A stretch of 10,271 nucleotides of DNA, taken from positions 676,324 to 686,594 of the forward strand of contig NZ_KB849283.1 in NCBI RefSeq assembly GCF_000368145.1, written 5' to 3'. The stretch's first letter is position 1. Every line of letters begins with the position of its first letter. Both the position numbers and the translations under genes were made by a program. The notes under the pieces are model-generated. The model did no database searches. It was given only the letters and a program-made list of their open reading frames with translations, and was not told the origin of the DNA. Of this stretch, positions 10,139 to 10,271 are shown one piece after another. Source of the stretch: Acinetobacter guillouiae CIP 63.46 (GTDB lineage: Bacteria; Pseudomonadota; Gammaproteobacteria; Pseudomonadales; Moraxellaceae).

Positions 10139-10166
10139 ATTTTGCATAACGAATATTATGTTACTT
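10139..10166 (+). other. dif/pdif-like XerC-XerD site candidate (left edge of repeat copy C), the best-preserved copy
   Basis: ATTTTGCATAA-CGAATA-TTATGTTACTT. As I recall the Acinetobacter pdif consensus (ATTTCGYATAA-N6-TTATGTTAATT), each arm differs at one position. Confidence 0.6.
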
Positions 10167-10271
10167 AGGATAGTCGGCACCGTGAATTATAATTTCTAAA
10201 TTTACGGTGCCGATCTGTGGCAACAATAGCGTTGTGTAGCCACAGCCTTTGGTATCTTATTTAACATAATA
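10139..10271 (+). repeat. Structured repeat, copy C (P1 10154-10172 / 10253-10271, P2 10173-10214, P3 10215-10245); the window ends at its 3' edge
   Basis: P1 has 16 Watson-Crick pairs, 1 G:T and 2 mismatches over 19 positions. P2 is GTCGGCACCGTGAAT / ATTTACGGTGCCGAT, with 13 Watson-Crick pairs and 2 G:T. The loop TATAATTTCTAA starts with TATAAT. P3 is CTGTGGC...GCCACAG. Confidence 0.9.

Follow-up and report, generated by a model that had tools for sequence, protein, structure and literature searches.

We identified three copies of one structured element, here called A, B and C, in a 10,271-nt stretch of the Acinetobacter guillouiae CIP 63.46 genome (contig NZ_KB849283.1; the whole of this stretch is referred to as the window), in which two inverted sites resembling dif, with arms for the recombinases XerC and XerD, enclose a fork of two hairpins. 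A covariance model built from relatives of the element and run on the window returned exactly three copies, all on the plus strand, at 87–253 (101.8 bits), 5148–5307 (111.5 bits) and 10156–10271 (102.5 bits, cut by the window end). Site 1 of copy C consists, in its plus-strand sequence, of a XerC-type arm, ATTTTGCATAA (10139–10149), the central region CGAATA (10150–10155) and a XerD-type arm, TTATGTTACTT (10156–10166). It is followed on the same strand by the fork (10167–10258), delineated by DNA folding and covariation and composed of the outer extension of stem P1 (AGGATA/TATCTT), the hairpins P2 and P3 and a conserved joining stretch, and by the inverted XerD arm of site 2, ATTTAACATAA (10259–10269), of whose spacer the first two nucleotides (TA, 10270–10271) precede the window end. 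This inverted arm, singled out by shuffle test and junction tables, is the exact reverse complement of TTATGTTAAAT and identical to the XerD arm of the host dif, and the crossover point described below lies at its 3′ edge. The initial annotation had drawn attention to the dif-like layout and to the inverted XerD arm 92 nt from the site 1 XerD arm, and all of its strings are present at the coordinates it gave. Chance is no explanation for these matches, as the exact XerD 11-mer occurs twice in the window (at 8289 and 10259) against 0.04 expected (200 shuffles, none with two or more) and ATAA-N6-TTATGTTA also occurs twice (at 5163 and 10146) against 0.01 expected. Within CGAATA, the first four nucleotides (CGAA) match the reverse complement of the site 2 spacer TAGGTTCG of an identical unit in another sequence record (L006, see below), and the final three (ATA) are as in the host dif TGTATA. 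Single-stranded DNA (ssDNA) folding of 10139–10271 gave P1, P2 and P3 at −28.5 kcal/mol (z = −7.5), with P1 pairing 10154–10163 to 10262–10271 and 10166–10172 to about 10253–10259, P2 at 10174–10213 and P3 at 10215–10245; this bears out the proposal that the XerD arm supplies the 5′ strand of P1. The complete copy C folds at −38.9 kcal/mol (z = −9.8), and in the consensus fold the XerC-type arm of its site 1 and the inverted XerC arm of site 2 are base-paired.

A tandemly repeated 1.97-kb mini-prophage ends on the right in copy C, which is intact; copies A and B are older, decayed right ends. The mini-prophage unit (8289–10258, plus strand, 1,970 bp) was recognized by its identity to L006, its matches to the inovirus-bearing locus L004 and its PHROG hits. 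It contains two small open reading frames (ORFs) on the minus strand, ORFs of 81 and 67 amino acids (aa), Rep cut down to its N-terminal 113 codons, a 32-aa membrane peptide and, as phage attachment site (attP), the element. The unit is a deletion derivative of an inovirus that kept the left-end regulators, the 81-aa ORF and 113 Rep codons and then runs directly into the 32-aa and 67-aa ORFs and attP; window 9035–9695 is 85% identical to L004 2571–3233, and the right end of the unit matches L004 9973–10397. Smaller mini-prophages of 1.06 and 1.25 kb, built like the window unit, occur in L076. The left junction of the unit (8289–8318, plus strand) has the same structure as four left junctions in other genomes (L038:69, L056:3894, L064:1023 and L047:5639), with the XerD arm at 8289–8299, the 8-nt phage spacer TAGGTTCG at 8300–8307 and the inverted XerC-type arm TTATGCGACTT at 8308–8318. 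Its first 13 nucleotides (8289–8301) are the same as 10259–10271 and continue through GGTTCG into TTATGCGACTT, the inverted XerC-like arm that the initial annotation had observed. The window stops at 10271 because the assembly itself stops there, the window end coinciding with the end of the 101,855-bp contig BBRY01000018.1 (L005; GCA_000829655.1), and the tandem 1,970-bp repeat is probably what broke the assembly. The 4,079-bp record L006 carries two tandem units, each 100% identical to window 8289–10258 (L006 2–3952), and at their joint copy C runs on as ATTTAACATAA-TAGGTTCG-TTATGCGACTT, the same string as window 8289–8318; the spacer and inverted XerC arm that had been predicted beyond 10271 are thus found in this identical unit. 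After the last unit, L006 reads ATTTAACATAA-TATACA-TTATACGAAAT, which is the reverse complement of the Acinetobacter dif.

Copy B (5156–5286, plus strand) is a relic attP by covariance model score and sequence, with site 1 (TTTCAGCATAA CTTATA TTATGTTACTT), P2 and P3 intact and with an upstream flank, AAATCGAGTAGCGATCTG, that is conserved in the CTTATA family of elements. It had been assigned the same layout as copy C, which holds for its arms at 5156–5183 and 5276–5286, but the inverted XerD arm (ATTTAACTTAA) has one mismatch, inside the conserved ATAA...TTAT motif, and the inverted XerC arm is absent. Copy A (about 108–228, plus strand) is by the same two lines of evidence the most decayed relic, and reads spacer CTTATA, TTATGTGCATT, P2, P3 and AGTTAACTTAT, with both XerD-like arms degenerate and no XerC-like arm. 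BLAST homology of copy A to other elements covers 107–227 only. It begins (107–108) precisely where the missing XerC arm would meet spacer 1, 20 nt past the stop codon of an RND pump gene; an exchange at the XerC cleavage point may have left this trace, or the position may be coincidental. A decayed fourth copy at about 8225–8288 was considered and is unsupported, the covariance model scoring only a site 2 at 8281–8324 (9.2 bits, E = 0.84). The blocks between copies A, B and C are non-phage cargo. Since new insertions would enter the dif regenerated at the right, A would be expected to be the oldest of the three, followed by B and C.

A search of one-genome-per-species stretches and IMG/VR viral contigs with a pattern comprising P3 and the inverted XerD arm recovered 45 genome stretches (43 titled Acinetobacter, 27 on contigs >200 kb) and 31 viral contigs of 4–19 kb, and the element now totals 95 instances in many Acinetobacter species and viral contigs. 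The titles outside Acinetobacter are a 6.2-kb Brevundimonas sp. contig (L016), whose copy is closely like those of Acinetobacter, and a beta-proteobacterium metagenome-assembled genome (L031), whose element region differs by one base from that of the A. johnsonii phage L002; contamination or mis-binning probably accounts for both, without a wider host range. As tabulated from 64 distinct full-length copies, the element is about 165 nt long and runs from XerC arm, 6-nt spacer and XerD arm through P2 and P3 to inverted XerD arm, 7–8-nt spacer and inverted XerC arm. The XerC arm of site 1 is TTTCGGCATAA, TTTCTGCATAA or ATTTTGCATAA, its spacer is CGTATA, CTTATA or CGAATA (60/64 copies) and its XerD arm is TTATGTTCATT or TTATGTTACTT. 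In site 2, the XerD arm ATTTAACATAA is exact in all 95 instances, as the search pattern demanded, the spacer is AATTACG, AATGAAG, TAGTTTCG or TAGGTTCG, and the XerC arm is TTATGCGAnnn. Spacers 1 and 2 agree only at their XerC-proximal 3–4 nt (CGTA, CTT or CGAA), and spacer 1 ends in ATA, matching the host TGTATA, in 60 of the 64 copies. The layout of inverted dif-like sites about 90 nt apart is shared by 30 distinct elements with a site 2 of their own.

Intact copies were always joined to inovirus genes or inovirus remnants. When plasmid records were searched with copy C by sensitive BLAST, two A. johnsonii XY27 "plasmids" were hit, NZ_CP070869.1 (6.4 kb, circular) and NZ_CP070868.1 (6.7 kb), both of which carry the element. 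The genes of NZ_CP070869.1 include those for Zot, TspB, a major capsid protein and a replication initiator, which identifies it as a filamentous-phage replicative form filed as a plasmid; its element is intergenic, between Zot plus small ORFs and the regulator/Rep genes. Locus L004 has Rep_trans, Coat_B, DUF2523 and Zot with a repeat period of 8.5 kb, and L064 has a complete prophage (1023–8543) with an HTH repressor, Rep_trans, DUF2523 and Zot. Taken together, L002, L004 and L064 provide Rep_trans, Coat_B, DUF2523, Zot and TspB, and the phage proteins searched in these three loci gave no match to the tyrosine recombinase family. Tandem arrays were present in L006, L076 and L004. The 50,697 records of the GenBank phage collection contained no match to the element, and we found neither a published description of it nor, in two papers on A. 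baumannii filamentous phages, a described attP. Some A. baumannii filamentous prophages have been suggested to "probably use host integration machinery" (Narancic et al. 2024).

RNAalifold and pair counts on the 30 distinct copies with their own site 2 gave one forked hairpin, consisting of P0, a small internal loop or bulge, P1, P2 and P3, with the last two recovered as fork arms in agreement with their earlier description as protruding arms of a folded site. P0 is formed by both XerC arms and the adjoining 3–4 spacer bases, and P1 by TTATGTT/AACATAA plus its outer extension, TTATGTT being invariant in 30/30 relatives and always paired with AACATAA. On the consensus structure 98.3% of cells are paired, versus 27–42% with the partners slid, and 16 pairs have changes on both sides. 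Such two-sided changes affect 8 of the 14 pairs of P2, while P3 and the P1 extension also covary, as do the spacer pairs beside the XerC arm (GC 21 and UA 8 in one, UA 21 and AU 7 in another). None of 500 shuffles reached the observed percentage paired, number of double-change pairs, number of double-change cells or covariation score; the count of further pair types was matched by 47 of 500. The forked hairpin is therefore strongly supported as a predicted structure. Helices of the plus strand contain 63 G·T versus 5 A·C cells (16 versus 5 pair columns), and under DNA parameters the plus strand is the more stable one in 27 of 30 copies (mean 2.1 kcal/mol). The plus strand is the sense strand of Rep, coat and Zot. 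In characterised inoviruses (e.g. Ff and CTXφ) the packaged strand is the sense strand, and to go by gene orientation the packaged strand here would be the plus strand. The G·T/A·C asymmetry argues that this gene-sense strand is the one that folds, and the G·T excess and plus-strand stability together favour selection for a single-stranded fold and not for a duplex cruciform.

RNA structure would equally show a sense strand enriched in G·T (G·U) pairs, and the element could on that account be a structured RNA, either a small RNA or the terminator of the upstream 67-aa gene, in which the dif-like strings would be incidental. We consider the chance of this close to negligible, given that the stem is made of XerC/XerD arms identical or near-identical to those of the host dif, that the element is a physical junction with dif in dozens of genomes and that Rfam had no match at the element, its two weak matches in the window (E = 0.27 and 0.38) lying elsewhere.

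The 33 distinct right ends read P3-ATTTAACATAA, a 6-nt host spacer, the host XerC arm (TTATRCG...) and host flank, the spacer being TATACA in 31 and TATTCA and TATCTA in the other two. The right junction in A. baylyi equals GATTCGTATAATGTATATTATGTTAAAT, which is the published dif of A. baylyi ADP1 (PMC2731167). Left ends read host flank-ATTTAACATAA-phage spacer 2-TTATGCGA, the last being the phage XerC arm, and at least five of them are clean (window 8289 and the four listed above). All 33 right and at least five left junctions have the crossover at the border of the XerD arm and the central region; right ends have retained the host spacer and left ends the phage spacer. Among the junctions, a host XerC arm was never seen next to phage spacer 2, and none of those examined lies at the XerC border, as used by CTXφ. 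Read from these sequences, the joint would be at the XerD-arm/spacer border or within the common XerD arm, on the strand that XerD cleaves. Models in which XerC mediates the exchange, on either strand and at either site, each predict junctions that were never seen, and we rejected them because neither spacer 2 next to a host XerC arm nor a host XerC-side flank to the left of the element occurs. Two-strand exchange over spacers of unequal length should yield both junction types; as only one was seen, the junctions point to a single-strand exchange followed by replication, and their position is compatible with XerD making the first strand exchange. The dif site used is chromosomal in most related genomes, with occasional use of plasmid dif (pdif) sites, and the flanking modules vary at these sites, both sides differing from genome to genome.

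Another reading makes the element a plasmid-type pdif module boundary, in which case XerC/XerD would shuffle the gene blocks between A, B and C from plasmid to plasmid. Cargo from between the copies does occur on Acinetobacter plasmids (MFS/LysR at 78% identity, VF530 at 91–94%), the element shares its arm consensus and host genus with pdif modules, and it lies, intact or truncated, beside some plasmid sites with other 6-nt spacers (TAGAGC in L001, TCAACG in L003). A hairpin between inverted XerC/D sites has moreover been proposed for the blaOXA-24 module (PMC7399989). However, the 27 of 45 genome stretches on contigs >200 kb adjoin the canonical dif spacer TATACA, and most copies are chromosomal. 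Whereas pdif modules enclose genes and have 6-nt spacers, the two sites of the element enclose a 92-nt fork without an ORF, one of its spacers is 7–8 nt long, and the unit is phage-borne, intact copies always being accompanied by inovirus genes or remnants; copies A and B, with their mutated arms, look like relics. We regard a pdif module boundary as very improbable, and the accessory-structure-bearing pdif variant contemplated in the initial annotation gives way to a context of phage or satellite integration beside dif.

The reading we favour, with a probability of roughly 0.6, is that the element is a CTXφ-like folded attP(+) of integrase-less Acinetobacter inoviruses and their 1–2-kb derivatives, which would insert beside dif through host XerC/XerD with exchange on the XerD side. 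In the packaged plus single strand, the left dif-like site would pair with the inverted right site into a forked hairpin of about 165 nt with P2 and P3 as its fork arms; the stem, interrupted by a small internal loop or bulge on the spacer's XerD side, would act as a duplex site for XerC/XerD binding. Strand exchange would take place at the XerD arm/spacer border in the 3′ half of the stem, where XerD cleaves. The invading host strand, 5′-TATACA, would be complementary to spacer 1 (...ATA) over 3–5 bases, whereas the 3′ half of the phage itself (spacer 2) would be mismatched or bulged opposite this ATA, so that the exchange would gain base pairs. Replication would then fix the insertion, giving a product with host, XerD arm, phage spacer 2, phage XerC arm, phage genes and site 1 in its left part and P2, P3, XerD arm, host spacer and host XerC arm in its right part, the final three being the regenerated dif. 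Because dif would be regenerated at the right end, new elements would accumulate on its XerD side.

The attP(+) of CTXφ, an integrase-less phage, has two opposite dif-like sites about 90 nt apart, as the initial annotation had noted, and forms a forked hairpin of about 150 nt (PMC3089051). Only XerC acts on it, and its homology to dif is on the XerC side of the spacer (PMC3089051). Like CTXφ, the Acinetobacter element belongs to filamentous phages or satellites without an integrase of their own (none of the searched proteins hit the recombinase family) and has a computationally predicted plus-strand forked hairpin whose stem would be the XerC/XerD substrate and whose central region is only partly paired; integration at dif with regeneration of a functional dif, tandem prophages and small satellite relatives are further common features. 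It differs in that all of its junctions are at the XerD-arm border, whereas CTXφ exchanges strands by XerC at the XerC border, and in that its homology to dif (ATA) is on the XerD side. The hairpin abuts the regenerated dif here, whereas that of CTXφ is at the prophage end away from dif; the Acinetobacter prophage is located on dif's XerD side; its element has spacers of 6 and 7–8 nt, as opposed to 12 and 7 in CTXφ; and there is no sequence similarity outside the Xer arms. The earlier idea of a CTXφ-type folded Xer site is upheld by inovirus context, dif junctions, stem covariation and wobble asymmetry, but it had not foreseen a crossover at the XerD border of the right-hand site. This crossover side is the one defining trait that sets the element apart from the CTX type.

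Several considerations weigh against the folded-strand reading. The junctions fit a folded single strand and a XerD-only exchange at a duplex site 2 equally well, and, the XerD arm being identical in both partners, the crossover could be anywhere in those 11 nt. The covarying sequences share descent, so the shuffle statistics overstate their independence, and RNA energy rules treat G·T as standard pairs. The hairpin may have been conserved for packaging or for complementary-strand priming. Finally, XerD normally requires FtsK or a phage factor such as XafT, and a DUF3653/XafT homologue was not found (Pfam, E up to 1) among the searched small ORFs of the window unit and L076, which leaves room for a remote or unrelated factor.

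The right-hand site alone might accordingly be the attachment site, recombined in the duplex replicative form by a XerD-first reaction as in TLCφ, with site 1 and P2/P3 serving as packaging signal or complementary-strand origin. Apart from the equal fit of a duplex XerD-only exchange to the junctions, filamentous phages need a plus-strand packaging hairpin and a minus-strand origin, which 1–2-kb mini-prophages must retain; any hairpin that includes site 2 needs a dif-like complement; and the 32-aa membrane peptide gene beside the element is similar in size to Ff pVII/pIX. There is no reason, however, for a packaging or priming hairpin to have an att site as its stem. Spacer 1 keeps the host-like ATA in place of a complement to spacer 2 at the XerD side, which would be expected for strand exchange and not for hairpin stability, and two inverted sites about 92 nt apart around a fork are the layout of the proven CTXφ substrate (PMC3089051). 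In addition, no XafT-like factor turned up in the small ORFs named above. We judge a duplex attachment site unlikely, and retain the folded attP(+) as the preferred interpretation.

The attP of TLCφ is a duplex whose XerD arm is degenerate, and the phage encodes XafT (DUF3653), which serves a XerD-first pathway. The Acinetobacter element resembles TLCφ in a crossover that is compatible with XerD-initiated exchange not necessarily tied to cell division and in the occurrence of small satellite-like elements at dif. It differs from TLCφ in its perfect XerD arm (exact in the window; elsewhere demanded by the search pattern), in the conservation of a second inverted site and a fork, and in that no DUF3653 protein was found among the small ORFs searched. 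VGJ-type phages use a single duplex dif-like attP and the XerC border, in contrast to the two inverted sites and the lack of any XerC-border junction here. With integron attC sites the element would share recombination as a folded single strand, conservation of structure over sequence, and single-strand exchange resolved by replication, but attC sites, which lie in cassette arrays beside intI, are read by IntI via R/L boxes and extrahelical bases, whereas the element has XerC/XerD arms and dif as its partner. Identity with attC was itself considered and rejected: on the minus strand, GTTAAAT of the XerD arm conforms to GTTRRRY, but AAGTAAC, the box opposite, does not conform to RYYYAAC; several genes and about 5 kb separate the copies; and the junctions are with dif.

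Two small genes recur next to attP. The 67-aa ORF directly upstream of copy C (9838–10041) is also encoded on several public contigs. All three element families have a helical protein of 67–70 aa (PHROG 13740, no Pfam) immediately upstream of attP (in addition to the window, L076 3043–3252 and L064 7953–8158), and the mini-prophages retain it. In the window unit (9721–9819) and in L064 (8235–8342), but not in the mini-prophages of L076, it is found together with a membrane peptide of about 32 aa. The structure model of the 67-aa ORF (pLDDT 78) is a Rop-like helical hairpin; a fold search of the PDB with this model gave no match at E < 1, and the fold is not FtsKγ-like. The 67–70-aa protein is a possible candidate for an accessory or activation factor.

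In many Acinetobacter loci (L042, L043, L037, L039, L019 and others), the VF530 gene and its flanks (window 5289–5511 plus 7820–8268) are one uninterrupted unit of about 0.7 kb; in the window, an MFS-LysR gene pair (5486–7788) splits it. The left end of this unit follows an element remnant in 4 of 5 inspected loci, and copy B in the window, and reads ATTTAACTTAT-GTTYAC-CTAGAATCTAA-TTCACAATT; the same motif is found after copy A (218–250) and again at 8185–8214. The oxidoreductase-Rrf2-MBL-TetR block between A and B (360–4413) has an 85% identical counterpart (L086) in a 3.97-Mb A. baumannii record that is filed as a plasmid and is probably a chromosome. No element lies near this homologue, so block and element do not always go together. 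A second filamentous prophage, of a different kind and in opposite orientation, occupies the XerC side of the same dif (L085 824–900 and 7850–7900; L064 8544–10400), with a simple att site and a degenerate XerD arm (TATTTACATAT-TATACA-TTATACGAATC), and the Acinetobacter dif seems to collect one kind of element per side.

On plasmids, a truncated element consisting of the end of P2, P3 and the XerD arm abuts TCAACG-TTATACGAAAT, a pdif-type site, in L003 (3928–4005; NZ_CP033769) and in 13 similar A. baumannii plasmids of 85–134 kb. In pIC001A (L001), the phage genes TspB, DUF2523 and Zot are followed by the element at a site with the spacer TAGAGC. Because elements adjoin plasmid sites in L003 and pIC001A, the phages use plasmid sites too.

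To our knowledge, three mechanistic types of Xer-exploiting elements are known, all of them worked out in Vibrio. We tentatively propose, at somewhat less than even odds, a fourth mode of Xer exploitation, a mirror image of CTXφ in which a folded plus strand would be inserted by XerD-catalysed one-strand exchange, in a large undescribed group of Acinetobacter inoviruses and mini-satellites that would build island arrays on the XerD side of dif and seed or target the pdif-type sites of resistance plasmids. If true, this would be a widespread Acinetobacter type combining the hairpin design of CTXφ with a XerD-side crossover, which would open the folded-strand strategy to either recombinase and would raise the question of how XerD gets switched on. 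The element also provides a sequence signature for Acinetobacter filamentous prophages and mini-prophages that standard tools and phage databases have overlooked. Plasmid pdif sites of Acinetobacter accompany carbapenem-resistance modules whose mode of movement is debated, and the element links these sites with the chromosomal dif arrays.

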